64,000 bases of DNA, taken from assembly GCA_036390115.1 (NCBI GenBank), contig DASWCM010000003.1, positions 101,111 to 165,110 of the forward strand. The letters are read 5' to 3'. This DNA is from Blattabacteriaceae bacterium. GTDB taxonomy: Bacteria; Bacteroidota; Bacteroidia; Flavobacteriales; Blattabacteriaceae. Position 1 is the first letter of the stretch, and each line of letters starts with the position of its first letter. Positions 23,282-61,633 of this stretch are shown piece by piece. Both the position numbers and the translations under genes were made by a program. The notes beneath the pieces were generated by a model that did no database searches, was not told where the DNA came from, and worked only from the letters and a program-made list of their open reading frames with translations.

Positions 23282-24721
23282 CTAACCTATTGTTCCTTCT
23301 AAAGAAATTTCTAAAAGTTTCTGTGCTTCTACTGCGAATTCCAGTGGCAACTTTTTAAGAACGATACGACTAAATCCCCCAATAATAAGTGATATAGCTT
23401 TTTCTTTATCGATTCCTCTTTGAGTACAATAAAAAATTTGTTCTTCCTCTATTTTTGAGGTCGTTGCTTCATGCTCAACCATAGACTCGGGGTTTTTTAC
23501 TTCTATAAAAGGAAAAGTATGGGCTCCACACTTATTACCGAGTAGCAAAGAATCACATTGAGAAAAATTTCTTGCATTCTTTGCTTTTGTAGATATTTTA
23601 ACTAAACCTCTATAATTATTTTGCGCTTTTCCAGATGAAACTCCTTTGGAAATTATAGTACTTCTAGTGTTTTTACCAATGTGGATCATTTTAGTACCTG
23701 TATCAGCCTGCTGAAAATTCCTAGTTATCGACAAAGAATAAAATTCTCCTAAAGAGTTATCCCCTTTTAAAATGCAAGATGGATATTTCCATGTAATAGA
23801 TGATCCAGTTTCTATTTGAGTCCAAGAAATTTTAGCATTTTTTTCACATAAACCTCTTTTAGTGACAAAATTATATACTCCTCCCTTGCCTTTTTTATTT
23901 CCTGGATACCAATTTTGAATAGTAGAATACTTTATTTCTGAATTTTCTAAGGCAATAAGTTCTACTACAGCTGCGTGTAATTGGGTTTCATTTCGTATAG
24001 GAGCTGTACATCCCTCAAGATAGCTTACATAAGAATTTTTATCTGCTATAATAAGAGTCCTTTCGAACTGGCCTGTTCCACTTTCATTGATTCTAAAATA
24101 GGTAGAAAGCTCTACTGGACATCGGACTCCTAGCGGGATATAACAAAAAGATCCGTCAGAAAACACAGCAGAATTAAGTGCCGAATAAAAATTGTCCTCT
24201 TTTGGCACTACTTTTCCTATGTATTTTTTTATCAATTCTGGATATTTTCTAATAGCTTCGCTAATTGAGCAAAAAATTATACCTTTTTCAAAAAGAATTT
24301 TTTTAAGGGTTGTTCCTAACGAAACTGAATCCATTACGACATCGACTGCAACTACACCTGAAAGTATTTTTTGTTCATCAATAGAAATCCCAAGTTTGTT
24401 AAAAGTATCCATCAATTCTGGATCAACTTCCTCCAAGCTATTAAATATAGTTTTAGGTGCAGAATAATAACTAATCTCTTGAAAATTTTGCCTTTTATAT
24501 TTTATATTACCCCATTTAGGCTCTGAAATTTTTTTCCAAATGGAAAAGGCATCTAACCTCCATTGTAGCATCCATTCTGGTTCTTTTTTTTTTTGAGAAA
24601 TAGAATGGATAACCTTCTCATTTAGCCCTTTTGCAAACTTATCGCATTCAATATTTGTATAGAAACCGTATTTATATTCAGATTCGATAACTTCTTGAAG
24701 AAGTTTATCTCTTTTTCTCAT
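23282..24721 (-). CDS. sufB: Fe-S cluster assembly scaffold SufB
   Basis: 479 aa. YKYGF start region, and [21 protein letters not shown] and [13 protein letters not shown]-terminal signatures. Confidence 0.95.
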
Positions 24722-27489: not shown

Positions 27490-27496
27490 CAAACTT

Positions 27497-27870
27497 TTGA
27501 AGATATTTTTTTATTATGTTTCCTTTCTTCTCTTTTTTTTTAGAGCTTCTCCGCCTAAATCAAATAATTTTGATCCATCTAAGGGCATCTTAGATAATAT
27601 AAAAGATTCTCATGAATGGCATCTTTTTGTAAAAGAAAAGATAATTTATCTTCCGATAATTTTATGGTATAGAGGGTTTCGTATTTTTCTTTCGTCATGA
27701 TTTAATCATGGAAATAAATTCATAGAAGGCAATCATTGCTACTACAGATTCTTTAAAGAAAGAATCTACAAAACTAATTATTACAGCTGCTTAGTTTTCT
27801 ATTTACCCAAAACCCACATTGAAATATTGGCAATCTTTTATTTTTACAGCTTTATCTTCTTTGTGGAATG
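27497..27870 (+). pseudogene. atpB: ATP synthase F0 subunit a remnant (in-frame stop, then most of the gene deleted)
   Basis: ORF 27497..27700 has a TTG start and reads ..FDPSKGILDNIKDSHEWHLF..IIYLPIILWYRGFRIFLSS. A TGA at 27698 is followed in the same frame by FNHGNKFIEGNHCYYRFFKERIYKT. From memory this matches the conserved N-terminal segment of Bacteroidota AtpB (..DSH....LPLPVILW..GL..F.SSKF.HG....GNH....IYKT). The C-terminal roughly 250 aa are absent. Boundaries are approximate. Confidence 0.6.
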
Positions 27871-27879
27871 ACTCTTGTG

Positions 27880-27995
27880 GAACATCATCAGCTAGAAGAG
27901 TATAATCGCTACAGAAGCTTCTGTCAGGCATTTATGATCTCTTAGATATGTTCTTAAATAGCAATTTATGTTATGGATTTGTTCCGTTGGTTTAA
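27880..27995 (+). pseudogene. atpE: Possible ATP synthase F0 subunit c remnant
   Basis: There are short frame-broken matches to the c-subunit core. IIATEAS resembles AIARQPEAS. SG.. and FMIS.. in neighbouring frames resemble MIIAAAL. The fragment lies between the atpB and atpF remnants as in atpBEFH. Evidence is weak. Confidence 0.35.
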
Positions 27996-28340
27996 TTATT
28001 TGGCAAAAAATTATTTTTATTATTTTATTAGTTTTACTAAGGAGATTTGCTTGGAGTATCTTATAGAAATTATTGAAAAACGCGAAAAAAAATATTCTCT
28101 GACTTAGAGAGACAAGCTCTTAAAAAAGAGAAAATTTTAAGAGAAGCTTGCATAGAACGAGATTTTCTTTTAAAAGAGGCTCTCTCCATAAAAGATAGAG
28201 TTAGAGGAAAAATCCCAAATTGAAAGGATGCTTGAACAAGCTATATAGGTTATAAAAACCGATAAATCTGTTGCTAGAGTTTTCGTCCTTGAAAAAGTTT
28301 GTTGTGGAGAGTTGTGTAGAAGAAGATTATGTCTGTGTGT
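27996..28340 (+). pseudogene. atpF: ATP synthase F0 subunit b remnant (frameshifted, with stops)
   Basis: LIIWQKIIFIILLVLLRRFAWSIL then a stop (frame of tgg at 28001). A different frame, starting at 28083, reads RKKIFSDLERQALKKEKILREACIERDFLLKEALSIKDRV. This matches the Bacteroidota AtpF pattern FWQ..IF..LL.LL.KFAWKPIL...RE..I...L..A......L.EA..ERD.ILKEA..IK. Confidence 0.6.
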
Positions 28341-28379
28341 AGGTCCTTCACGATAAGCCTGTCAAAGAGCAATCGATAT

Positions 28380-28893
28380 TATAGTCCTAATAGTATGATA
28401 GGAGGAGATACAGCCTAGCAATTGACATTATCCTTAATAAAAAAAGACTTTATGAAAGTGGTAATCCCATATATTGTACATAAGTCAAAAAGGTACTGGT
28501 AAAAACTCTTATAGATCATGGGGGGGATGGACAAATTTTTCTTGAGTCAGATTTGTTCAATGCTGTACAGCAATTAATGAAGGAACTAGGGAGAAGCTCA
28601 GATTGCATCGATGAAAAAACTATCTGGAACATTTAAATTGGATGAGGGATTTTCCAAATTTAGTTCTGATTTAGATACCACAACTTTATCAATAATTCAT
28701 AAAGGTCGTTGGAATGTATAAATCAAGCAATTAATTCACTAGATAAAATATCTGATCAAATAGCACTTGTATATGCGAGTACAAAAAATCATTATTCGTT
28801 GTATTTTCCTATAATAAAGGATTATTTGGAACTTTTAACACTTCCATCTTCTGGATGAAGGAAAATTTTTTAAAGACAAAATCTTCCAAATAA
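28380..28893 (+). pseudogene. atpH: Possible ATP synthase delta subunit remnant
   Basis: Collinear weak matches: RRRYSLAIDIIL resembles the N-terminal [40 protein letters not shown] resembles the central L..LL.EN.R...L..I...F segment. The C-terminal FNTSIFWMKENFLKTKSSK stop resembles Y(D/N)ASV...L..LK..L. All are broken by stops. Confidence 0.3.
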
Positions 28894-29358
28894 ATTCATA
28901 TAATGATATAGGAAAAAAAGGAATATATTTTAAAAAAAAATATAAAATATTAAACGAAAATAAAATTTAGAAAATATCTCTTCTGTAAAAGAAACTTACG
29001 CAAAAGTTTTTTAACATGGATTTTTTATCAATATATTTAGTGTATAATACACCAAAAAGTCTGAAATATCACATTATAAAGCAATGCTACTTTATCATCT
29101 GGAGCAGATATTAACTTTCTTTTTGAACCTTCAAAAGAAAGAATTTTTGATTATATTATATCAATGATATTAAGAATAAATTTTATCAAAGCTTTTTTGG
29201 AATCAACTGTATAGGAAAATACAGCTTGAATGACATCCATGAATATAGCAACTGAAAATGCCTCATATTTAAAATATGAGCTAACATTGAGATATAACAA
29301 AATAAGACAAGAAGCTATTACCAAAGATATTTTATAACTTATTGGAGTAACAAAAAAA

Positions 29359-30318: not shown

Positions 30319-30331
30319 TTTATTAAAGAAC

Positions 30332-30830
30332 ATGGATAGAGAAAGAATGATAAAATTTTTAAAGGAAATTTATATATCCCGGGTAGTAGATTAATATTGT
30401 AGATAATCAATCTCTTATTGATATTTTTTTTTAGGAGATTGTGCTTGCTTAGAAAGCGCAAAAAAAAAACTTTAATATGATATTCCTAAAGCAAGGAACA
30501 CAAAAATAAAAATTAATACAGTAATTACTCATCAGAGTCTGGAGTAAAAGTATATAATACTTCTGAGTAAATATTCCATAACTTATCTAAAATGGGTGTG
30601 ACGTTTATAGGCCTTCTATTCCTATAATGTTTAATTAGGAAAATGTTTTCTATCTTTAGATAAGGAAAAGAAAAAATAAAACCTTATGAAAATTATGGAG
30701 TAAAGATGTTATCTTTAGGTTTTTTGCTCATATTAGCAGTTTTATGACGTGCTATTAAAGCATTGAAAGAGATTCTTATTGGGGTTTTAGTTGTATGGGG
30801 GCTAAAGGAGCTATACTTGGAATAGGATAA
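30332..30830 (+). pseudogene. pdhA: Possible pyruvate dehydrogenase E1 alpha remnant (tentative)
   Basis: Stop-riddled fragments lie at roughly the spacing expected for E1 alpha. MDRERMIKFLKEIYISRVVD (30332) resembles Y..M...R.FE. VITHQSLE (30521) resembles ITAYR.H. GKCFLSLDKEKKK (30638) resembles GGSMH.F.KE. YENYGVKMLSLGFLLILA (30685, shifted frame) resembles YGG.GIVG.Q..LG.G.AFA. ALKEILIGVLVVWGL resembles L.E..N.A.LW.LP. Identities are low. Confidence 0.35.
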
Positions 30831-31056
30831 AATATGGCTTTTTTAAAAATAAAAGAAAAAATATTTTACATTTGGAAAAAATGGGCTAAAAAACTTTCTA
30901 TTGAACTTGTCTCTCTTCATGCCAATAAAGTTTAAAAAAAAATTTTTAAAAATATTTTACTAGGCTAAAAAGCAATAAATTTATTTTTTTCTTTCTAAAA
31001 AGAGATCTTTTTGCAACCTTTCACACAATTCGTACATTTGAGTAAATGAAAGAAAA

Positions 31057-32739: not shown

Positions 32740-34536
32740 ATGAGGGAATACATACGTAATTTTTGCATAATTGCACATATAGATCACGGAAAAAGTACTC
32801 TGGCTGATCGTTTGCTTGAGTTTACTAAAACCGTTTCTGATAAAGAAAAAAAAGATCAACTTCTTGATGACATGGAACTAGAGAGAGAGAGAGGAATTAC
32901 TATAAAAAGTCACGCTATACAAATGACATATACTTATAGAGGTAAAACTTACATTCTCAATTTGATTGATACACCTGGACACTCAGATTTTTCCTCTGAG
33001 GTATCTCGCTCTATTTCTTCCTGCGAAGGAGCTATACTTGTTGTAGATGCTTCTCAAAGTATACAAGCTCAAACGATTTCTAACCTATACTTAGCTTTGG
33101 AGAATAATTTAACCATTATTCCAGTTTTGAATAAGATTGATCTTCCTGTATCTAGAACTTATGAAGTAATCGATGATGTTGTTGAATTGACTTCTTGTCA
33201 TCCTAAAGAAATTATATTAGCTAGTGCTAAAAAAGGACTGGGAATTGAAGAAATTCTTCAAGCCATAATGACACGAATTCCTCCACCTAATGGACTTCCA
33301 TTAGAGCCGCTCCAGGCGTTTATATTTGATTCAAATTATAATCCTTTCAAAGGTGTAGAAATTTATTTTCGCATTATACATGGCTTTATGGTAAAAGGCC
33401 AAAAACTAAAGTTTTTAGCCTCTGGCCAAACATATTCTGCTAATGAGATTGGGATCCTTAAATTGAAAAAAATTTCCAGAGAGTGTATTCAAACAGGTGA
33501 TGTAGGATATGTGATATCTGGAATTAAAGAAGCTAAAGATGTAAAAGTTGGGGATACCTTTACTTCTTCAGAAAACCCAGCTATTTTTCCTTTAAAAAAA
33601 TTTGTAGAATCTAAACCAATGCTTTTTGCAGGCATTTATCCCCTACATAATAAGGATTATGAAGAGTTGAGAACTTCTATGGAAAAATTACGTTTAAATG
33701 ATGCTTCTTTAAGTTTCGTTTCTGAAACTTCAACTGTTTTAGGGTTTGGGTTTCGATGTGGATTACTTGGAAGGCTTCACATGGAAATAGTTAAAGAAAG
33801 GCTTGAAAAAGAATATAATATGACCGTAATTATTTCCATTCCGAATGTTTCTTATCATGTATTTTTAAAAAAAAAAACTAAAAAAGCTATAATAGTTAAA
33901 AATCCATCAGATTTTCCTGATTTAAGTAAATTGGATCGTGTAGAGGAGCCTTATATCCGTGCTGAAATTATTACGATGTACGATTATGTAGGATCCATAA
34001 TATCCTTGTGCTTGGAAAAAAGAGGTGTGATAAAAAATCAATTGCATATTACTTTGCATCGTGTTAAATTGGTTTTTGAAATGCCTTTATCTGAAGTAGT
34101 TTTTGATTTTTATGATCGTTTAAAACAACTTTCTAAAGGGTATGCTTCTTTCGATTATACTCTTTTAGAGTATAGACCTTCCAATTTGGTCAAAATAGAT
34201 ATTCTGATAAATCACCAAGTAGTTGATTCGCTTTCCTTCTTGTCTCATCGAAGTATTTCATTTAAAATGGGAAAAAAAATATGTGAAAAATTACGGGAAC
34301 TCATTCCACGCCATCAATTCGATATTCCTATTCAAGCAACTCTTGGAAGTAAAACTCTTGCTAGAGAAACGATAAAATCTTTTCGAAAAGATGTAACAGC
34401 TAAATGCTATGGGGGAGATTTCTCTAGAAAGAGAAAGTTACTTGAGCAGCAAAAACTAGGAAAAAATAAAATGCGAAATATTGGTAAAATAGAGATTCCA
34501 CAGTCAGCTTTCATAGAAATTTTTAAATTTTCATAG
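32740..34536 (+). CDS. lepA: Elongation factor 4 (LepA)
   Basis: 598 aa. IRNFCIIAHIDHGKSTLADR, DTPGHSDF, NKIDL and the C-terminal LepA domain ..KCYGGDFSRKRKLLEQQK.GK. Confidence 0.96.
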   Translation: MREYIRNFCIIAHIDHGKSTLADRLLEFTKTVSDKEKKDQLLDDMELERERGITIKSHAIQMTYTYRGKTYILNLIDTPGHSDFSSEVSRSISSCEGAILVVDASQSIQAQTISNLYLALENNLTIIPVLNKIDLPVSRTYEVIDDVVELTSCHPKEIILASAKKGLGIEEILQAIMTRIPPPNGLPLEPLQAFIFDSNYNPFKGVEIYFRIIHGFMVKGQKLKFLASGQTYSANEIGILKLKKISRECIQTGDVGYVISGIKEAKDVKVGDTFTSSENPAIFPLKKFVESKPMLFAGIYPLHNKDYEELRTSMEKLRLNDASLSFVSETSTVLGFGFRCGLLGRLHMEIVKERLEKEYNMTVIISIPNVSYHVFLKKKTKKAIIVKNPSDFPDLSKLDRVEEPYIRAEIITMYDYVGSIISLCLEKRGVIKNQLHITLHRVKLVFEMPLSEVVFDFYDRLKQLSKGYASFDYTLLEYRPSNLVKIDILINHQVVDSLSFLSHRSISFKMGKKICEKLRELIPRHQFDIPIQATLGSKTLARETIKSFRKDVTAKCYGGDFSRKRKLLEQQKLGKNKMRNIGKIEIPQSAFIEIFKFS

Positions 34537-35161: not shown

Positions 35162-35236
35162 GACTGGGTAGCTCAGATAGGACAGAGCTGCAGTTTCCTA
35201 AACTGTAGGCCGCAGGTTCGAATCCTGCCCTGGTTG
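35162..35236 (+). tRNA. tRNA-Arg (anticodon CCT), acceptor stem with three G-U pairs
   Basis: Hand-folded. Acceptor gactggg/cctggtt, D arm tagctcagataggacagagc, anticodon stem gcagt/actgt, loop ttCCTaa, T arm gcagg-ttcgaat-cctgc. No complete CCA is encoded. Confidence 0.75.
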
Positions 35237-35262
35237 CCTACATACATAAAAAAAATATAAAT

Positions 35263-36654
35263 ATGCTGCCTATTCAGTATAGATACAAAAGGAGGAAATT
35301 GTATATAGAAAATTACGGATGTCAAATGAATTTTTCTGATAGCGAAATAGTAACTTCGTTCTTAAAAGAAGATGGATTTGAACCAACTAATAATTTTGAA
35401 GAAGCGGATTTATTATTTATAAATACTTGTTCAATACGAGAAAAAGCTGAAAAAAACGTAAAAAATCGTTTAAAAATATTTAATATTTTAAAAAAAAAAA
35501 AACCGAAGCTTATAATAGGAATGCTTGGCTGCATGGCCGAACGTTTAAAGTTCAAACTCTTAGAAGAAGAAAAACTCGTTGATTTAATCGTAGGGCCTGA
35601 CTCTTATAGAAACATTCCTCACTTAATTAAGTTAGTTGAATCTAAAAATGCTGGGAATGTTTCTATTTCTTCTTATAAAGAAGAGACATATGCAGATATT
35701 AAACCAGTTAGGGAAAATGGAGTTACTGCTTTCATAAGTATTACGCGTGGTTGTGATAATATGTGTAGTTTTTGCATAGTTCCTTTTACTCGAGGAAGAG
35801 AGAGAAGTAGAGATCCTAAAAGTATTATAGAAGAATGCGAAGAATTATGGAAAAAATCTTACCAAGAAATTACTCTTCTAGGGCAAAATGTGGATTCTTA
35901 TATTTGGTACGGAGGTGGGGTAAAAAAAGATTTTCATAAAGCTTCAAATTTAAAAAAATATAAATCTATAAATTTTGCTAAACTCCTTGAGTTTATCGCT
36001 AAAGCTGTTCCATCCATGCGTATCCGTTTTTCTACATCCAATCCTTGTGATATGTCGGAAGAAGTTTTGGAAACCATTTCTCGGAATACGAATATTTGCC
36101 AGCACATACATTTACCAGTCCAATCTGGAAGCACTAGAGTACTTCAACGAATGAATCGCAAATACACTCGCATTGAATACCTTTCTTTAATTAGAAGGAT
36201 TAGAACAATCCTTCCTGATTGTTCGATCTCTCAGGATATAATTACAGGTTTTTGTGGAGAAAGGGACCAAGATCATATTGATACATTGAGTTTAATGGAA
36301 TTCGTTAAGTATGACTTTGGCTATATGTTCGCCTATTCATCTCGTCCTGGAACCTTTGCTGAAAAAAACCTTAAAGATGATGTTCCTGAAAAAATTAAAA
36401 AACGTAGACTTTCTGAAATTATAGATTTACAACGAAAACATTCTTATGAACGAATACAGAGACATGTTGGAAAGGTACAGGAAGTTTTAATTGAGGGTGA
36501 ATCAAAGAAAAGTAAATATCATTGGTATGGAAGAAACTCTCAAAACGCAGTTGTAGTTTTTCCAAAAGATAATTCTCATTTAGGAGACTTGGTTAAAGTA
36601 AAAATTAATGATTGTACGGCTGCTACATTAATAGGGGAAGTTTTAAACCATTAG
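35263..36654 (+). CDS. miaB: tRNA-i6A37 methylthiotransferase MiaB
   Basis: 463 aa. YIENYGCQMNFSDSE (UPF0004 domain), radical SAM CDNMCSFCIVPFTRG, and a C-terminal TRAM domain. Confidence 0.93.
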   Translation: MLPIQYRYKRRKLYIENYGCQMNFSDSEIVTSFLKEDGFEPTNNFEEADLLFINTCSIREKAEKNVKNRLKIFNILKKKKPKLIIGMLGCMAERLKFKLLEEEKLVDLIVGPDSYRNIPHLIKLVESKNAGNVSISSYKEETYADIKPVRENGVTAFISITRGCDNMCSFCIVPFTRGRERSRDPKSIIEECEELWKKSYQEITLLGQNVDSYIWYGGGVKKDFHKASNLKKYKSINFAKLLEFIAKAVPSMRIRFSTSNPCDMSEEVLETISRNTNICQHIHLPVQSGSTRVLQRMNRKYTRIEYLSLIRRIRTILPDCSISQDIITGFCGERDQDHIDTLSLMEFVKYDFGYMFAYSSRPGTFAEKNLKDDVPEKIKKRRLSEIIDLQRKHSYERIQRHVGKVQEVLIEGESKKSKYHWYGRNSQNAVVVFPKDNSHLGDLVKVKINDCTAATLIGEVLNH

Positions 36655-47889: not shown

Positions 47890-49121
47890 TTTTTAATAAC
47901 TTCAAAATCTGTATAAGGTATTAGCTCCTTAGGTAGGGTAATATATTCTTTTTTTTGATTATTCTCCATCAAAGCAGCTAAAACTCTTGGTAGTGCAAAA
48001 GCACTACCATTTAAGGTATGACAAAGTGTTTTTTTTCCTTCATCTGTTCTATATCGAAGTTGAAGACGAGTACTTTGATAATCTGTGCAATTAGATAAAG
48101 AGCTTACTTCTACCCATCTATGCTGGACTGCTGAATAAATTTCAAAATCATAAGTTATTGAAGCGGTGATTCCCATATTCCCCCCGCAAAGTCTTAACAC
48201 ACGAAAAGGTAGTTCTAAACTTCTTAAAAGTATTAGAAGATGTTCTTTCATTTCTTCAAAAGCATAATTTGACTTTTTAGGTTCAGTAATTTGTATAATT
48301 TCCACTTTATGAAATTGATGGATCCTGTTTAAGCCTCGAACTAGATTTCCATAAGATCCAGCTTCTCTCCTAAAACAAGGAGTATAAGTGGCTGCTTTAA
48401 TGGGTAGTTGTTTTTTTTCCAATATTTTATTTCTAAAAATGTTCATTAAAGGAACTTCTCCAGTTGGTATTAAGTAAAGATCGTCCATTGGAATATGGTA
48501 CATTTGGACTTCTTTATCTGGAAGTTGGCCAGTACTTCGTACACTTATTTCGTTCACAAGGTAAGGAAGCTCATATTCAAAATACCCAGATTCTGTGTTT
48601 TTATCTAGAAAGTATTTAATTAACCCACGCTGTAATAGTGCCCCTTGTCCTAAATAAATAGGGAATCCTTTTTGGCTAATCTTTGTTCCAGTTTCAAAAT
48701 CGAAAATTCTAAATTTTTTTTCCAAATTCCAGTGTGGAAGAGATGATTCACTCAGAGTTGGAAAATCTCCATATTGATAAATAAGTTCATTATCTTCTTT
48801 TGATTTACCTATTTTAACGCATTCGTCAGGAATGTTGGGAATTTGCAAGAGTTTTTCTGAAAGTTTTTCAAAAATATCTACCAATTTGTATCTTAGATAC
48901 TTAATTTCTTTTTTTAATTTCAACTCAACTGAGTTTATTTTATAAAATTTATCTAAATTTTTAGATTTAGATAAAAGATGTTCTAATTTTATTTGTAATT
49001 TTTTTTTTTTTTCGTCCAAAATTAATACTTCATTAAGTAGATCAGTTTTAGTAAAAAATCGTTTATTCAGTCCAATAAAGACCTTTTTTTTATATTCTCT
49101 AATGAAAGAAGTTCGTAACAT
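47886..49121 (-). CDS. serS: Seryl-tRNA synthetase
   Basis: 411 aa. N-terminal coiled coil, then class II motifs CFRREAGS, HQFHKVE and TLNGSAFALPRVLAAL. Confidence 0.94.
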   Translation of the reverse strand: MLRTSFIREYKKKVFIGLNKRFFTKTDLLNEVLILDEKKKKLQIKLEHLLSKSKNLDKFYKINSVELKLKKEIKYLRYKLVDIFEKLSEKLLQIPNIPDECVKIGKSKEDNELIYQYGDFPTLSESSLPHWNLEKKFRIFDFETGTKISQKGFPIYLGQGALLQRGLIKYFLDKNTESGYFEYELPYLVNEISVRSTGQLPDKEVQMYHIPMDDLYLIPTGEVPLMNIFRNKILEKKQLPIKAATYTPCFRREAGSYGNLVRGLNRIHQFHKVEIIQITEPKKSNYAFEEMKEHLLILLRSLELPFRVLRLCGGNMGITASITYDFEIYSAVQHRWVEVSSLSNCTDYQSTRLQLRYRTDEGKKTLCHTLNGSAFALPRVLAALMENNQKKEYITLPKELIPYTDFEVIKK

Positions 49122-49179: not shown

Positions 49180-49398
49180 ATGTCTAAAATTTGTCAAATA
49201 ACAGGAAAACGATTGATTATAGGAAATAGGGTTTCTCATTCCAATAAAAAGACGAAGCGTTATTTCAGTATTAACATAAGTAAGAAGAGATTTTTCCTAA
49301 CATCTGAGGATCGTTGGATTACTCTGAAAGTTTCAGCTTCAGGGATAAAGACCATAAATAAGGTGGGTATAGAGAAAGCTTTGAAAAAAAAAACGTAA
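49180..49398 (+). CDS. rpmB: 50S ribosomal protein L28
   Basis: [11 protein letters not shown]...[12 protein letters not shown] start. Confidence 0.95.
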
Positions 49399-51097: not shown

Positions 51098-51218
51098 AAC
51101 TATTTTTTATCCACGTAGTCATTAGAAAAATTGTGATAGCTGACCAAAAAAAACTTTACACTTAGCTTTCCTCCTACCTAAAGGTAGGATCAAATCTTTC
51201 ATAGCTTAAATAGTTAAG

Positions 51219-51294
51219 TGACCTCGGAGGGACTTGAACCCCCAAACCTTCTGATCCGTATTCAGATGCTCTCTCCAAATTAAGCTACGAGGCC
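51219..51294 (-). tRNA. tRNA-Arg (anticodon ACG)
   Basis: The reverse complement folds. Acceptor ggcctcg/cgaggtc, D arm tagcttaatttggagagagc, anticodon stem tctga/tcaga, loop atACGga, T arm. No encoded CCA. Confidence 0.88.
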
Positions 51295-51735
51295 TCGTAG
51301 CTTAAAGTATAATAAAAAATTCATATTGATGCAAGTTTTAGATAAACCTAGAATAATAAATGTTCTTCCTCTTATGATAGGAGATAGTAAGGCAAGAGTA
51401 ATGCTTTATTTTGTATAAATCATAGATACTACTAATAGTAAATATGTTACCAATTCTATAACATCTATTTTTAAAAAATTTACACTTCTATAAGCCGTAG
51501 AATACGGAGCTGTAATGATTCACGATTCATCTGTAGGTGAGGTTAGTCGTTTAAAACGACCATTTAAAAATAAAAATTATTTTCTCTTTTAAAAGATAAG
51601 GGAATTAATTTATTTATCACATAGATTTACGTTTTATTAGTATCTATCTTTAATGGCCCTATACAATTTTTTTTCATCTCGAAGAGATCAAAAATTCGTT
51701 ACTTTGCATTTTTATTTTTTTATTCGGGTAGACAG

Positions 51736-51757
51736 TTCCAAAGAAGCTTCTTTGGAA
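51736..51757. repeat. Perfect 22-nt palindrome ttccaaagaag/cttctttggaa, 44 nt upstream of the rpsU start
   Basis: Read directly from the sequence. The first 11 nt are the exact reverse complement of the last 11 nt, and the flanking bases do not extend it. Confidence 0.95.
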
Positions 51758-51800
51758 AAGTGCATAGAATTAATCAATATAGGTAAAAAAATCAATAAAT

Positions 51801-51998
51801 ATGAAATTAACTACATTTCTTAAAGAAGGAGAATCTATCGATAAAGCTTTAAAAAAGTACAAAAAAAAGATTGAAAAGATTCATCTTCTGAAAGAGATAA
51901 GGGATCGGAAATACTATATAAAGCCTTCTTCTATACGAAGAAGTGAAATAAACAGAGCTAAATATAGGGAGTATTTGAGGTGTAAACGAGAGGAATAA
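51801..51998 (+). CDS. rpsU: 30S ribosomal protein S21
   Basis: 65 aa. ..KEGESIDKALKKYKKK....LLKEIRDRKYYIKPS..RR is the S21 pattern. Confidence 0.92.
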   Translation: MKLTTFLKEGESIDKALKKYKKKIEKIHLLKEIRDRKYYIKPSSIRRSEINRAKYREYLRCKREE

Positions 51999-51999
51999 T

Positions 52000-53358
52000 A
52001 TGATTAATAAAGAAACTATAGCAGCTCCAGCTACATCAAGTGGGGCTCTTTTTCTAGTTAGGATATCTGGAAAAGAATCTATCGATATAGTAGAAAATAT
52101 TTTTAGACCAGTTAATTCAAGAAAAATTTTGAGAAATCAAAAATCTCATAGTGTCCATTTAGGATATTTATCAAATAATGGCAAGGATTTAGATAAAGTG
52201 TTAGTTTCTTTATTCAGGTCTCCACATTCCTACACAGGGGAAGATATGGTAGAAATTTCTTGTCATGGATCTTCTTATATACGAGATAAGCTTTTACAGT
52301 TGCTTCTAGAAAAAGGAGCTAGAATGGCTCGTCCTGGAGAATTTACTATGCGAGCTTTTATAAATGGAAAAATGGATCTATCTCAGGCAGAAGCTGTCGC
52401 AGATCTTATTTCTGCAGAATCTGAGTCCTCTCATCGAATTGCTATGATGCAGATGAGAGGAGGCATTTTTCCTCTTATTAAAGAGTTGCGTAAAGAACTT
52501 CTTCAATTCGCTTCTATTATTGAGCTGGAGTTGGATTTTTCTGAAGAAAATGTAGAATTTTCCAGTAAGGAAGATCTATATAAGCTTTTGGATAAGCTTG
52601 AAAATAAATTAAAAGGTTTGATTGATTCTTTTTCCTTAGGAAATGCTATAAAGCAGGGAGTTTCTGTCGTGCTAGTTGGGGCTCCAAACTCTGGAAAATC
52701 CACATTGTTTAATGCTCTATTGAAGGAAAATAGATCTATAGTTTCAAAAATTCCAGGAACTACACGTGACGTTATTGAAGAGAGTCTTATTTTAGATGGG
52801 ATCCGTTTTAGGTTTATAGACACTGCGGGCATAAGACAAACAGAGGATGATATTGAGAAAATAAGTATTCAAAAAACTATTGAAATAGTTAGTAAATCAC
52901 AATTGATTATTTATCTTTTTGACGCAACTTCTTTTGAAGAAGAAAGAATCCTTAATGATATTTCTAAAATTAGAGCTTCTAGAATCTTTATTGTGGCTAA
53001 TAAGATTGATATAGTTAATAAGATTGATCTAAAGATGATTGATCTTTCTTATTTTTTCCAAATATCTGCTAAATTAGGGATAGGGATTAATGGATTGAAG
53101 AATGCTCTGTCTAATTTTGTATCTAGTAAAATTTTAGATCAAAAGATGGTGATTTCACAATGGAGGCATTATGAAGCATTTATAGGAACTTTGGACTCTA
53201 TTTATGAAATACGAAAAGGTCTTGAACTAGGTCTTTCAGAAGACCTTGTAGCAATGGACATTCGTCAGGCTTTACATTTTTTAGGAGAAGTGACAGGAGA
53301 TGTCAGTCCAGATAATTTATTGGAAAACATTTTTTCAAAATTTTGTATAGGGAAATAA
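52000..53358 (+). CDS. mnmE: tRNA modification GTPase MnmE
   Basis: 452 aa. TIAAPATSSG start, G domain GAPNSGKSTLFNAL and DTAGIR, and the C-terminal FCIGK tetrapeptide. Confidence 0.95.
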   Translation: MINKETIAAPATSSGALFLVRISGKESIDIVENIFRPVNSRKILRNQKSHSVHLGYLSNNGKDLDKVLVSLFRSPHSYTGEDMVEISCHGSSYIRDKLLQLLLEKGARMARPGEFTMRAFINGKMDLSQAEAVADLISAESESSHRIAMMQMRGGIFPLIKELRKELLQFASIIELELDFSEENVEFSSKEDLYKLLDKLENKLKGLIDSFSLGNAIKQGVSVVLVGAPNSGKSTLFNALLKENRSIVSKIPGTTRDVIEESLILDGIRFRFIDTAGIRQTEDDIEKISIQKTIEIVSKSQLIIYLFDATSFEEERILNDISKIRASRIFIVANKIDIVNKIDLKMIDLSYFFQISAKLGIGINGLKNALSNFVSSKILDQKMVISQWRHYEAFIGTLDSIYEIRKGLELGLSEDLVAMDIRQALHFLGEVTGDVSPDNLLENIFSKFCIGK

Positions 53359-55494: not shown

Positions 55495-55854
55495 TTATTC
55501 ACTTCTTCTATAAGTTACAGATTCTACTATTTCCTTAAAAACTTCAGGAAAATTAGTCGCTAAATCAGATAGTACTTTTCGGTTTAATCCAATATTTACC
55601 TTCTTTATTTTATTCATAAAACTTGAATAAGATACCCCATGAATACGAACCCCTGCATTTATACGCTGTATCCACAAAGATCTAAAAAATCTCTTTTTTT
55701 TTTTTCTACCTGTATAAGCATATTGAAGAGCCCTTTCTACAGCATTTTTAGCTACAGTATACACTTTACTTCTAGCTCCATAATAACCTTTTGCTAAATT
55801 TAAAATTTTTTTTCTTCTATTTCTAGAAGCTACAGAATTTACTGATCTTGCCAT
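55495..55854 (-). CDS. rplT: 50S ribosomal protein L20
   Basis: [28 protein letters not shown] start. Confidence 0.96.
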
Positions 55855-56062: not shown

Positions 56063-56611
56063 TTATTTAGGAGATAGAATTATAAACATTCGTTTACCCT
56101 CCGTTCTTATTGCTTGTTCTATCCGTCCAAATGGACTCAAAACATCAACAAATCTATTGATCATTTCCTCGCCCTTCCCTTTATGGAGAATAGTCCTACC
56201 CTTAAAGAATAGAGAAACTTTAACTCTTTCTTTCGATTTCAAAAATCTTTCAGCACTTTTTATCTTGAATTCTAGATCATGGGAACTGGTTTGAACCCCA
56301 AAGCGGATTTCCTTTATGATCCGTTTTTTATCTCTATTTAACTGCTTTTTCTTTTTCTTTTGTTCGTATAAAAACTTTTTATAACTTAGAATCCTACAAA
56401 CTGGGGGCCTTGATACTGAATCAACTTCAACAAGATCTAACTCTTGCTCTTTAGCTATTTTTAGAGCTTCTAAAATAGGAAGAACCCCTCCCCCACTTCC
56501 ATCTTCACTAATTAACCTAACCTCTTTTGAGTAAATATGCTCATTAATTGGGTGAAGATTTTTTTTATTATTAATCCTATTACTTTTTTTCTTATAAAAT
56601 TTTCTATGCAA
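56063..56611 (-). CDS. infC: Translation initiation factor IF-3 (no in-frame ATG; non-canonical start)
   Basis: INEHIYSKEVRLISEDG N-domain and a C-domain with KEIRFGVQTSSHDLEFK. The ORF-track start at 56611 is TTG. There is no ATG upstream of the conserved core. Confidence 0.93.
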   Translation of the reverse strand: MHRKFYKKKSNRINNKKNLHPINEHIYSKEVRLISEDGSGGGVLPILEALKIAKEQELDLVEVDSVSRPPVCRILSYKKFLYEQKKKKKQLNRDKKRIIKEIRFGVQTSSHDLEFKIKSAERFLKSKERVKVSLFFKGRTILHKGKGEEMINRFVDVLSPFGRIEQAIRTEGKRMFIILSPK

Positions 56612-56614
56612 TAT

Positions 56615-58515
56615 TTAAATATTTTTAAAAAAATTAATTTCTTTTCTTAGAAAGTCTAGAAAGAGACTTATCGAAATAGATCCCAAATTTCCTATTATAT
56701 GTCGGCGTATAGAGATGATACCTTTTTCTTGTTCAAAATCTCCAATTACTCCTAAAATAGGTATTTTATAGTTCTCTGCGTCTCTAATTTTTTTTGATAT
56801 ATTTTCATTTCTCTCATCCAAGAGAGCCCTAACACCATAAATATATAGCAAATCTAAAACTTTTTTTGCAAATTTAAGATTTTTTTTTTTATTGTTAGCA
56901 ACATAACTTGGGTTGGTGCAAGCCAAAGTGGTAGATTTCCTACCGTGTGTTCCAAAAGAATAGCTGAAAATCTCTCCAAAGAACCAAAATGTGCACGATG
57001 AATTATAACTGGTCGATGAAACTTATTATCTATTCCTTTATAAGATAAATCAAAACATTCAGGTAGATTGTAGTCCACTTGGATGGTACCTAATTGCCAA
57101 TTTCTACCTAGAGAATCTTTAACCATAAAATCTAGTTTAGGTCCATAGAAAGCTGCTTCTCCATATGCTAAAATAGTTTTTAAGTTTTTCATTCTTGAAG
57201 AGTGAATAATAGCTTCTTCTGATTTTTTCCAATTTTCTTCAGAACCTATATAAGAATTTCTCTTGTCTCTTAGAGATATTTTTGCCGTATATTCTTTAAA
57301 TCCAAAGACCCTAAATACATAAAAGATCATATCAATCACTTTTTGAATTTCAACTGACAACTGATTTTGTGTGCAAAATATGTGTGCATCATCTTGAGTA
57401 AAGGATCTAGTACGAGAAATCCCATGTAACTCTCCGCTTTTTTCATAACGATATACCGTACCGAATTCAGCTAAACGTTTTGGCAAATCTCTGTATGAGA
57501 ATTTTTTATTTCGATAAATTTCACAGTGATGTGGACAATTCATTGGCCTTAAAAGAAATTCCTCTTCTTTATTAGGAGTCCTTATTGGTTTAAAAGAATT
57601 TTTTCCATACTTTTTCCAGTGCCCTGAAGTTTCATAAAGTATTTTATGCCCAATATGGGGCGTGGTCACCATTTCATACCCAGATTTTTTTTGCAACTTT
57701 ATTAGAAAATTTTCCATAAGTTTAAGTAAGTCAGTACCTTTAGGAAGCCATAATGGCAATCCAAGTCCTACCCGTTCAGAAAAAATAAATAAACCAAGTT
57801 CTTTACCTAATTTCCTATGATCACGCTTTTTAGTTTCCTCCAAAATAAGAAGATACTCTTCTAAATATTCTTTTCTAGGGAAAGAAATACCGTAAATACG
57901 GGTAAGCTGTTCATTTACCTTCCAATAGGATCCTGATGTATTGATAATTTTTACTGATTTTATCAATCCAGTATGCGGAATATGTACGCCCAGGCATAAA
58001 TCTGTGAAATCTCCATAAGTGCAAAAAGTAATAACTTGAAAACTTTCGATTAATTCAATTTTATATTTGTTTCCTTCATAATGTTTTATAGCTTCATTTT
58101 TTGAAAATGTATCACTTTTAAAAGTGTTTGATTTTAGAGCGTTTTCCAGAATTTTTTTCTCAATCTTATGGAAATCTTTTAAATGAGCTTCTCCAAAATC
58201 TATATCATAGTAAAACCCATTATCAATGGGATTACCAATATGTAAATTTGCTTTAGGATAAAAATTTAAAAGAGCTTGAGTTAACAAATGAGCTGAAGAA
58301 TGCCAAAAAGCCTTTTTACCTAGGGCATTATCCCATGTATAAAAAGATAATTCAGAATCTTCGAAGATTTCTATATCAAATTCAACTTGTTGTCCGTTAA
58401 GACTGGCTGATAAAACTCTTTTTGAAAAACTGTGACTAATACCTTTAATTATTTTAGCGGGAGTTATTCCTTTGGAATACTTTCTAACCTTTCCATAAGT
58501 AAAACGAATCATCAT
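56615..58515 (-). CDS. thrS: Threonyl-tRNA synthetase, reading frame interrupted in an A11 tract (ORFs 56854..58515 and 56615..56926)
   Basis: The N-terminal ORF carries the TGS, editing and class II catalytic core (..HRPVIIHRAHFGSLERF..LWLAPTQVMLLTIKKK) and stops 8 codons after the tract. The anticodon-binding domain (NLKFAKKVLDLLYIYGVRALLDERNENISKKIRDAE..KIPILGVIG) continues in another frame. The frames switch at the plus-strand T11 run 56880..56890. Confidence 0.9.
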
Positions 58516-58534
58516 ATTTTTCGAATTATTTTCT

Positions 58535-59280
58535 TTATATACTGAAATTTTTCAAAAGATCATCTACTTCTTCGATAGAATTTCCAGATCCTTTGGAAAT
58601 ACGAATATTGCGATTTTCATTTATGAGTTATGGATTTTTACGTTCTTTTTCCGACATAGAGTATATAATTGATTCGGTCTTTATCCCCTTTTAAGTCAAT
58701 TTAATGAAAAATATTTCCCATACCCATCACATATTTTTAACCTTATGAATTTGACTTAAAAAATCATTAAGATCAAATTTATTTTGATCAATCTTCCTTC
58801 TTATGCTTGTTCTTTACTAAATTACTCATTAACTTTTTACACCATAGAGATTACATCCTCCATTACAAGGAGGCTTTTCGCTATTATAGCAGTATAGAAA
58901 ATATCTAAATACTCTTACAGTTCCAATAAACTTTATTGGCTTTTTATAAATGGAACAAACTGTGAGTATAGCATCATACTCCGTTAAAATACAGTACATC
59001 TTTAAAATTTTTTGCAGTATTAGCAGAATCTTGTCCATTCATAGCATCTACAATAAAAAGGCTTTCGGATGGACGAATCGCTTTATAAATACGCTCCATT
59101 TCATCCATCATTACTTTCAATCTTCCAGCTGGATCAATAATTAGCACGTCATAATTACCTTCTTTAGCAAAAGCGACAGACTATCCAAGAACTTTTATTT
59201 TCTGAATAGCTGCTGGTCTGTTGTCGATAGAAGTGTTTTTTTTCTTTTTTTTCTAACTTCCATTATACTTTATTAAACAA
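58535..59280 (-). pseudogene. ffh: Signal recognition particle protein Ffh pseudogene (5'-truncated, frameshifted)
   Basis: Reverse-strand translation gives several Ffh peptides. KKNTSIDNRPAAIQKIKVLG then a stop. FAKEGNYDVLIIDPAGRLKVMMDEMERIYKAIRPSESLFIVDAMNGQDSANTAKNF, where DTAG reads DPAG. LTEYDA..KKPIKFIGT (ORF 58829..59038). DFLSQI, and RNIRISKGSGNSIEEVDDLLKNFSI then a stop. The frames are broken by stops, and the N-domain and P-loop region are missing. Boundaries are approximate. Confidence 0.85.
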
Positions 59281-59493
59281 CTCTAAGTAATTCTCATCTT
59301 TACAATTAAGAATAAAATATTCAAAAATATCTGTGTTAATACAGAATTTCCAACTTATTTTCCTACCCTAATTTGGTGTACTTAATTTCTTGCCTTAAAT
59401 AAGTAATATTGTAGCATTGATGTAGAGCTTTTCTATTTTTCAGATAAAAATTAGTTTATCAATAACATAAAAGATTCTATGTAGTGTAGGCAT

Positions 59494-60796: not shown

Positions 60797-61633
60797 ATGT
60801 TTTGGAATTTTTTTCTAATTTGGAAAAAACTCTTAAGTTGGAGAGTTATAGGATACTTGTTCGAAAGTTTATCCATTTTACTTGGAGCTTTTCTAAAAAT
60901 TTTAACGTTTAATAACAAATTTGATAAAACAAAATCCTCTGTTTTAAGGAATTACAACCTACTATTTTTCCTATCAATAATTTTCATATTCCCCCCTTTG
61001 AAAAATTTTGGGTATAAACTCCTAACTGTATCTGCAATTTTGATATTAGTATATCAAAAGTTTTTTATTGACTTTTCTAGTAGCATTTCTCTTTTAATAT
61101 CTCAACCTTTTCGGTTTGGGGATTACTTTGAAACATCAAAAGGTTTTTCTGGATATGTTCAGGAAATAACATTAAGACACACAGTTATAAGAACTGTAAA
61201 TAATAATAAAATTGTTTTTCCTGTTAGAACTCTAAACGAAGAGTTTATTATAAATAATAATATTGGAGACATAATAGTTAGAAAAAATATAAATATTAAA
61301 ATTTATTATAGCTTTAAGCTAAATTTGGCTATAAAGATTATCAAAGAAGAAGTAGAAAAACATCCTTTTTGTATTGACGGAAGAACATACGAAGAAAAAA
61401 AAAATTATCTCCCTTTAGTTCTTGTTAAAATAACAAGTTTTAATGATTTTTCTCTAAATCTTAGAACCTTTGTATGGGCAGAAGATAATAGTAAAGGAAT
61501 TCAACTTGAATGGGATTGCCTTAATAAAATAATAAATAGATTTGAAAAAGAAGAAGTTTTCCTTTCTCTCCCAAAAATAATTATATTAAAAAATTTTTCA
61601 TACAAAGGCTTCTGTTTTATAGAAAATGTTTAA
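60797..61633 (+). CDS. Mechanosensitive ion channel family protein (MscS-like)
   Basis: 278 aa. N-terminal TM helices, then ISQPFRFGDYFETSKGFSGYVQEITLRHTVIRTVNNNKIVFPVRTLNEEFIINN, the MscS beta-domain signature. The start codon is uncertain. Confidence 0.8.
   Translation: MFWNFFLIWKKLLSWRVIGYLFESLSILLGAFLKILTFNNKFDKTKSSVLRNYNLLFFLSIIFIFPPLKNFGYKLLTVSAILILVYQKFFIDFSSSISLLISQPFRFGDYFETSKGFSGYVQEITLRHTVIRTVNNNKIVFPVRTLNEEFIINNNIGDIIVRKNINIKIYYSFKLNLAIKIIKEEVEKHPFCIDGRTYEEKKNYLPLVLVKITSFNDFSLNLRTFVWAEDNSKGIQLEWDCLNKIINRFEKEEVFLSLPKIIILKNFSYKGFCFIENV

Follow-up and report, generated by a model that had tools for sequence, protein, structure and literature searches.

Bacterial RNA polymerase slips on runs of at least nine A or T residues, and in Buchnera and Blochmannia, genes carrying a frameshift within a poly(A) tract have 12–50% of their transcripts corrected (PMC5009743, summarising Tamas et al. 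2008 for the latter). In Blochmannia vafer, the frameshifted genes dnaX, dnaG and pth, among others, are treated as rescuable (PMC3017870, which quotes a figure of ~30% full-length transcripts). For Walczuchella, a symbiont from the Flavobacteriales, slippage rescue of carB, trpC and mnmE has been suggested (PMC12188211). Some bacteria also make use of transcriptional realignment at A/T runs for expression, as in Thermus dnaX, Shigella and Citrobacter rodentium tssM (PMC5009743, PMC4256274). Here we analyse thrS, the gene for threonyl-tRNA synthetase (ThrRS), in a 64-kb stretch of DNA from a Blattabacteriaceae bacterium (contig DASWCM010000003.1; hereafter the window), in which the reading frame of thrS is broken inside a run of eleven A residues. 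Since selection still preserves both halves of the gene, the likeliest reading is that the cell obtains the full enzyme through slippage on this run. We put the probability at roughly 0.6 that thrS is still in use, with a genuine one-base deletion in the tract and with full-length ThrRS produced by slippage, mainly that of RNA polymerase.

The strain of the window is designated W; window coordinates are used throughout, the GC content is 31%, and thrS lies on the minus strand. A T11 run on the plus strand at positions 56880–56890 corresponds to an A11 run on the sense strand of thrS, which reads ata aaa aaa aaa atc across the run, preceded by cca acc caa gtt atg ttg cta aca and followed by tta aat ttg caa aaa aag ttt tag. 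The first-pass annotation had placed a frameshift inside this A11 run, and its transcription of the sense strand agrees exactly with ours. The 5′ frame (56854–58515, minus strand), which is in the list of open reading frames (ORFs) and is also called by JGI as a 553-aa gene, comprises 553 codons followed by TAG at 56856–56854. Besides the N-terminal region, it holds the editing domain (tRNA_SAD), the class II catalytic core and the opening strand of the anticodon-binding domain, and past the tract it ends in an out-of-frame tail, ILNLQKKF, with the stop 8 codons beyond the run. The 3′ segment (56615–56879, minus strand) comprises 88 codons of the anticodon-binding domain (NLKFAKKVLDLLYIYGVRALLDERNE...FFKNI) followed by TAA at 56617–56615, matches HGTP_anticodon with an E-value of 3.7e-13, and is free of stops and indels. 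Adding one A, or removing two, restores a frame that reads TIKKKNLKFAKKVLDLLYIYGVRALLDERNE... and stays open to this TAA; the junction peptide expected of a rescued full-length ThrRS is ...LLTIKKKNLKFAK.... The A11 run is one base short of the 12-nt slot that encodes I-K-K-K-N in in-frame relatives, a slot that aligns without gaps with I-S-E-K-Y of free-living ThrRS. We also considered a compensating second indel downstream of the tract; none exists, because homology continues in a single shifted frame to the natural stop. An A11 run per se is unremarkable at the composition of the window (14 overlapping A11 matches, versus 5.5 ± 3.7 in dinucleotide-preserving shuffles).

The repaired protein, of 633 aa, has the domain order of a bacterial class II ThrRS, with Pfam matches to tRNA_SAD (7.9e-12), tRNA-synt_2b (1.7e-44, residues 315–523) and HGTP_anticodon (3.7e-13, residues 536–625). 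Since the HGTP_anticodon match spans residues 536–625, the break falls about 10 residues into the anticodon-binding domain. An N-terminal TGS domain gave no Pfam match in W ThrRS at E ≤ 0.001. Against named ThrRS from free-living and symbiotic Flavobacteriales, the repaired protein shows 59–64% identity over 97–100% of its length, and against those of free-living members 59–61% over the full length. A scan of genome contigs with it returned only free-living Flavobacteriales (55–60% identity) and no member of the clade of W. With the intact ThrRS of a relative as query, tblastn detects one thrS locus in the window, lying in two frames, and no other copy there, in keeping with the earlier statement that no second thrS is visible.

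The ten distinct sequences in the 90% identity cluster of W ThrRS divide into six full-length proteins (628–635 aa) and four truncated ones (546–553 aa); the product of a further lineage, Y, of 545 aa, sits in its own cluster. The 553-aa product of W is encoded on the JGI soil-metagenome contig Ga0137376_10000001 (202,365 bp; sample 3300012208). Protein P0243, of 552 aa, is the same product minus the first Met, with the tail ...TIKKKILNLQKKF, and occurs on three further contigs (NCBI, Logan and ENA), for which the state of the tract was inferred from this protein tail. Some of the W-strain contigs may be re-assemblies of the same reads, and the replication they offer is only partly independent. 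Another protein, P0002 (495 aa), is identical to the 553-aa product save for an internal gap of 58 residues (...NKEE|AHIFC...), and no contig is on record for it.

Beyond W, we recovered DNA of the thrS locus from seven further lineages or samples: W2 (L087/L093, JGI 3300012200), L088 (Logan SRR30711659), Y (L085, JGI 3300073944), X (L082/L083/L084), Z (L086/L091), L092, and L089/L090 (an NCBI contig labelled 'Angelobacter'). Z was the only additional contig turned up when metagenome DNA was scanned with a degenerate 36-mer taken from the downstream domain, and a looser pattern might give more. The homologous tract is present and variable in length in every relative found. We judged the frame by the slot that follows 'AT', which is 12 nt long in every in-frame sequence. 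By this measure, the tract is in frame as A12 in X and L092, as T+A11 in L089/L090 and as A8CA3 in Z, and out of frame as A11 in W and Y, as A10 in W2 and as T+A10 in L088. W2 is the same strain as W, being 99.98% identical, with two single-nucleotide polymorphisms (SNPs) and two homopolymer-length differences over 21,238 bp. Strain W shows the out-of-frame state in two samples and on at least five contigs, and the sister lineage L088 and lineage Y show it too. A comparison of tract length across sister strains had been proposed along with the frameshift, and the alleles obtained, A12, T+A11 and A8CA3 in frame against A11, A10 and T+A10 out of frame, form the pattern expected of a tolerated poly(A) frameshift.

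On neither side of the tract does the gene look decayed. In nucleotide alignments of W, X, Y and Z, all thrS indels other than the tract are multiples of three, and over 4.6 kb the only other indels between W and Z that are not multiples of three are two intergenic ones. Once the tract is set to 12 nt, each of the eight sequences yields a single open frame of 618–635 aa; in W, W2, L088 and Y, nothing interrupts the downstream frame before the natural stop. Nei–Gojobori dN/dS values are similar on the two sides: 0.26 upstream and 0.30 downstream of the tract for W and X, and 0.23 and 0.26 for W and Y. Between W and L088, both of which are frameshifted, dN/dS is 0.20 upstream (34 synonymous to 28 nonsynonymous changes; p = 3e-9 against neutrality) and 0.21 downstream (6 to 5; p = 0.015), where the neutral expectation is about 1 synonymous to 3.8 nonsynonymous. 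The W-specific changes downstream of the tract number 7 synonymous and 7 nonsynonymous. Purifying selection acts on both halves of thrS, and the description of the halves as conserved rather than decayed, offered in the first-pass annotation, holds. One multi-nucleotide substitution downstream of the frameshift is unusual: at 56735–56740 (minus strand), W has GAT TTT in place of the GAC AAG or GAC AAT found elsewhere, a K-to-F change in the anticodon-binding domain made up of four adjacent base changes, with GDFEQE in W, GDNEQE in L088 and GDKEQE in the others.

The DNA next to thrS shows what decay looks like in this lineage. Between sucD and thrS, at 58516–59493 (minus strand), tblastn and blastn against the intact genes of L082 identify decayed remnants of ahpC, argS and ffh. 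All three genes are intact at this position in X and Y, and argS and ffh are intact also in L089 and L092. In the remnant region, W and L088 differ by 17 gap openings and 52 mismatches in 731 columns, or one opening per ~43 columns, whereas the 267 nt downstream of the thrS tract contain 0 indels between the same two lineages, against ~6 expected at the density of the remnant region. Judged by sequence comparison, thrS is not decaying: the marks of a pseudogene, namely accumulating stops and indels and a dN/dS near 1, are absent.

By analogy, thrS would be a further tolerated poly(A) frameshift of the Buchnera/Blochmannia type, a known trick, and it reveals no new mechanism. At the molecular level, this type is defined by a mixed mRNA pool with length-corrected transcripts and by a full-length protein. 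In both settings, the genome is that of a symbiont, reduced and rich in AT, and a single indel lies in a sense-strand A run of at least nine residues; the gene has no other damage and evolves at normal rates; sister lineages carry an in-frame or interrupted version of the tract (A8CA3 in thrS, a T-interrupted dnaX in B. pennsylvanicus); and frameshifts or reversions may have arisen independently on the tree. The differences are that the host lineage belongs to the Flavobacteriales rather than the Gammaproteobacteria, that an aminoacyl-tRNA synthetase is affected, that the lineage is known here from metagenome contigs alone, and that corrected transcripts are known for Buchnera and Blochmannia, whereas the case for thrS is built from DNA sequence. 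The resemblance to Walczuchella is one of clade and lesion: both fall in the tiny-genome, insect-symbiont clade of Flavobacteriales (GroEL ~81% identical), have the same type of lesion and are also losing synthetase genes. The genus and the genes are different, and the claim for thrS uses a comparison of the tract across several lineages together with selection tests, not the presence of a tract only. In common with Thermus dnaX, Shigella and tssM, an A or T run of at least nine residues would let RNA polymerase add or drop bases and yield product from an interrupted gene; some of those systems give two useful products, whereas thrS is expected to be useful only as the full-length enzyme. The thrS frameshift looks like a tolerated mutation rather than design.

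The route to full-length ThrRS that we favour would run as follows. The poly(A) tract of thrS, being hypermutable, would have lost one base, leaving A11 where 12 nt keep the frame. RNA polymerase would then slip on the A run and generate mRNAs of mixed length, A12 (and A9) transcripts among them, and the in-frame transcripts would be translated into full-length ThrRS. The correction required is the addition of one nucleotide in the RNA (or the removal of two) or, equivalently, a −1 shift of the ribosome. A −1 ribosomal slip on A_AAA_AAA may contribute, since its product would be exactly the same I-K-K-K-N protein. Our preference for transcriptional slippage comes from the closest known cases, where this route has been demonstrated, and it is by this analogy that we infer transcription, not translation, to be the main route. 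Slippage by RNA polymerase, −1 slippage by the ribosome and a minority of in-frame genome copies would all yield the same protein, and the present data do not separate them.

Several points weigh against this interpretation. Slippage at thrS is inferred, not observed. The substitution counts downstream of the tract are small (11–25 substitutions). The frameshifts of W and L088 could be independent and recent, and if so, what the dN/dS values and indels record is for the most part the period before the gene was broken. The out-of-frame alleles are all 1–2 nt under the in-frame length and never longer. Finally, the lineage has lost argS, another aminoacyl-tRNA synthetase gene, and ffh, so that the designation of thrS as essential in the first-pass annotation is weaker than it assumed. 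With argS and ffh gone, an early loss of thrS is dismissible on the selection evidence only and not on principle.

A neighbour-joining tree of 4.8 kb has the topology ((L088,(W,W2)),(Z,L089)),((X,Y),L092), which places out-of-frame alleles in the W and L088 clade and in Y and implies at least two origins. W and L088 have in common a slot of 11 nt, and the parsimonious account of these sequences would be one ancestral deletion in their clade. Tentatively, and with somewhat less than even confidence, we suggest that the out-of-frame state is ancestral to W and L088 and has persisted through their divergence (dS ~0.11), with the tract drifting among A10, A11 and T+A10.

The rescue might instead be mainly translational, with ribosomes slipping by −1 or sliding on the A run and no need for mRNA of heterogeneous length. 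A −1 shift on ATA AAA AAA AAA ATC gives I-K-K-K-N-L-K-F, as does the in-frame A12 allele, and the run provides a slippery heptamer of the X_XXY_YYZ type (A_AAA_AAA in the zero frame). This zero-frame context, together with a −1 shift that reproduces the in-frame protein, makes the site similar to the homopolymeric A stretches on which ribosomes slide in E. coli (PMC4363877). The comparative evidence fits such a route as well as it fits transcriptional slippage. The site differs from a programmed −1 site of the dnaX type in having no stimulatory element: the 100 nt downstream of the tract fold no better than shuffled sequences (z = −0.72), and no AGGAGG-like motif, as expected of a Shine–Dalgarno-like element, is visible in the 30 nt upstream. 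The lack of a stimulatory structure indicates that any ribosomal contribution would be unprogrammed. In addition, for the same strain's A10 allele the ribosome would have to shift by +1 or −2, which is less favoured, and among the endosymbionts studied so far, it is corrected transcripts that explain the rescue (PMC5009743). We regard a mainly translational rescue as improbable, at odds of about one in eight.

We give similarly low odds to the proposal that thrS is a young pseudogene on its way to loss like argS, with Thr-tRNA charged by an enzyme of the host or of a co-symbiont. The setting lends this proposal some weight, given the reduction of argS, ffh and ahpC to remnants right beside thrS in the W and L088 clade. 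From the sequences, the W lineage appears to have lost both a synthetase (argS) and the protein of the signal recognition particle (ffh): no arginyl-tRNA synthetase (ArgRS) of the W, L088 or Z lineages was found on any contig in the protein collection searched, although the window keeps the genes for tRNA-Arg(CCU) at 35162–35238 and tRNA-Arg(ACG) at 51218–51294. Losses of aminoacyl-tRNA synthetases are also described in Walczuchella (PMC12188211). Against the proposal stand the lack of a second lesion in all four out-of-frame thrS sequences, the dN/dS of ~0.2 on either side of the tract between two frameshifted lineages, and the lack of any indel in 267 nt where neighbouring pseudogenes open a gap every ~43 columns. 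A young pseudogene would furthermore require that three lineages be caught right after inactivation at the same site, and it is only because all three would be at the same first step without a second lesion that we rate it low.

Less probable again is complementation among genome copies, in which a polyploid symbiont would carry a heterogeneous tract and a minority of A12 copies among a majority of A11 copies would give normal mRNA. Two samples of one strain differ at the tract (A11 versus A10) and at 49384–49393, yet show 2 SNPs in 21 kb, and the A11/A10 difference indicates that length changes at the DNA level are frequent. On the other hand, none of the five contigs of the W strain carries the in-frame length, and polyploidy is assumed here from other insect symbionts.

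A sequencing or assembly artefact, in which the tract is really A12 and the consensus calls the homopolymer too short, is unlikely, and slightly more so than heterogeneity among copies. The first-pass annotation had named A12 in genomic reads as a sign of an assembly error; the contigs give a partial answer, in that the A11-type product recurs on the JGI contig and three more, and the second sample has A10, not A12. Two features would suit an artefact, namely the out-of-frame alleles that are only ever too short, and the fact that at a second run, too, W2 has one base fewer than W. This run, at 49384–49393 (plus strand), A10 in W and A9 in L093, is the sole other homopolymer difference between W and W2 in 21 kb, and it lies three codons before the rpmB stop. 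In the A9 version of L093, the rpmB frame continues into rpmG next to it, where the JGI annotation has an L28 and L33 fusion of 134 aa.

The remaining evidence on homopolymers speaks against an artefact. Contigs from JGI, NCBI, Logan and ENA all show the A11-type allele, even if some of these are perhaps re-assemblies. Eighteen of the 20 window runs of at least 10 nt are sense-strand poly(A) inside long open frames, and long runs lie in frame in intact essential genes: A14 in serS (48999–49012), A13 in miaB (35490–35502), A12 in rplT (55694–55705), and A11 in both lepA (33867–33877) and sufB (24584–24594). These runs are potential further hot spots of slippage and mutation, and they double as controls for how homopolymers are called. 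A14, A13 and A12 runs are in frame in the same contigs and identical between the two samples; W and W2 agree at 11 of 13 runs of at least 9 nt, including A14, A12 and one A11. When each window run of at least 7 nt was changed by ±1 nt, only the thrS run joined two parts of one gene, and four other flagged runs fell at junctions of neighbouring ORFs. The same test on ~96 kb of the relatives' loci (163 runs of at least 8 nt) flagged the thrS tract only, in Y, W2 and L088. No other long homopolymer splits a gene by a 1-nt change in the ~160 kb examined, and among more than 160 runs of at least 8 nt, only the thrS tract is out of frame. On the strength of the relatives' alleles, the indels in multiples of three, the dN/dS of ~0.2, the contrast with the neighbouring pseudogenes and the lack of any other gene-splitting homopolymer, these sequences indicate that the thrS frameshift is real and tolerated.

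A split gene, in which the catalytic core assembles in trans with a separately initiated 78-aa C-terminal fragment (TTG at 56851), would be indifferent to A10 versus A11 and matches the 78-aa HGTP_anticodon ORF that gene callers predict past the thrS stop in W, W2 and L088, but we reject such a fragment as very unlikely on domain-boundary grounds, given that it starts at about residue 556, where the Pfam domain starts at 536, and lacks the domain's opening strand and the greater part of its first helix, and that the 30 nt from the tract to the TTG are nearly invariant, with a sole change (CTT to CTA in L088) that is synonymous in the rescued frame. No ThrRS known to us sets a precedent for a division here.

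Directly downstream of thrS lies infC (56063–56611, minus strand), in the conserved order thrS–infC–rpmI–rplT, and the window encodes ribosomal proteins together with pheS, trpS, glnS, asnS, serS, thrS, suf genes, groEL, gyrA, aroB, aroC, dapB, dapD and metF. Rfam finds only tRNAs and no rRNA in the window, so placement was made by GroEL instead. The GroEL of W is 96–98% identical to proteins on contigs of up to 249–251 kb from other metagenomes, and 81–84% identical to the GroEL of Karelsulcia, Blattabacterium, Shikimatogenerans, Bostrichicola and Walczuchella. From these comparisons we concluded that W is an insect-symbiont-type lineage of Flavobacteriales with a genome of probably ~250 kb, related to Sulcia and Blattabacterium. 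Our guess at its host would be a soil arthropod.

Three further observations concern the window and its relatives. Stretches at 27490–29150, 30320–31050 and 51100–52000 run for up to 1.6 kb without an ORF of more than ~70 aa on either strand, and in an otherwise tightly packed genome these are probably further decayed genes. A mechanosensitive-channel-like gene at 60797–61633 (plus strand) has an MS_channel Pfam match and no NCBIfam match; in the relatives, none is called at this position in L088, the gene is broken up into small ORFs in L092, and in L089/L090 it is fused to cca in a single ORF (765–773 aa). The L089/L090 relative is deposited at NCBI as 'MAG TPA: Candidatus Angelobacter sp.' (HZD84155.1, HZD84157.1). 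Angelobacter is the name of an acidobacterium, and the contig is presumably mis-binned.

Our analysis would extend the rescue of poly(A) frameshifts by polymerase infidelity from gammaproteobacterial symbionts to a flavobacterial lineage and to a core enzyme of translation. One practical consequence is a warning for annotation: gene callers split thrS into products of 553 aa and 78 aa, and surveys of gene content would therefore score ThrRS as truncated or missing. The natural series of alleles at one tract, in frame, interrupted and out of frame, suits measurement of slippage efficiency. Having lost argS and ffh, the lineage is a useful system for the boundary between tolerated damage and gene loss in tiny genomes. 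Were the out-of-frame state indeed ancestral to W and L088, comparative evidence for a maintained slippage-dependent gene would have been obtained, to our knowledge for the first time, both for a synthetase and for a symbiont of the Bacteroidota, and a synthetase in a Flavobacteriales clade with ~250-kb genomes would have been expressed only by way of poly(A) slippage for an evolutionarily long time.

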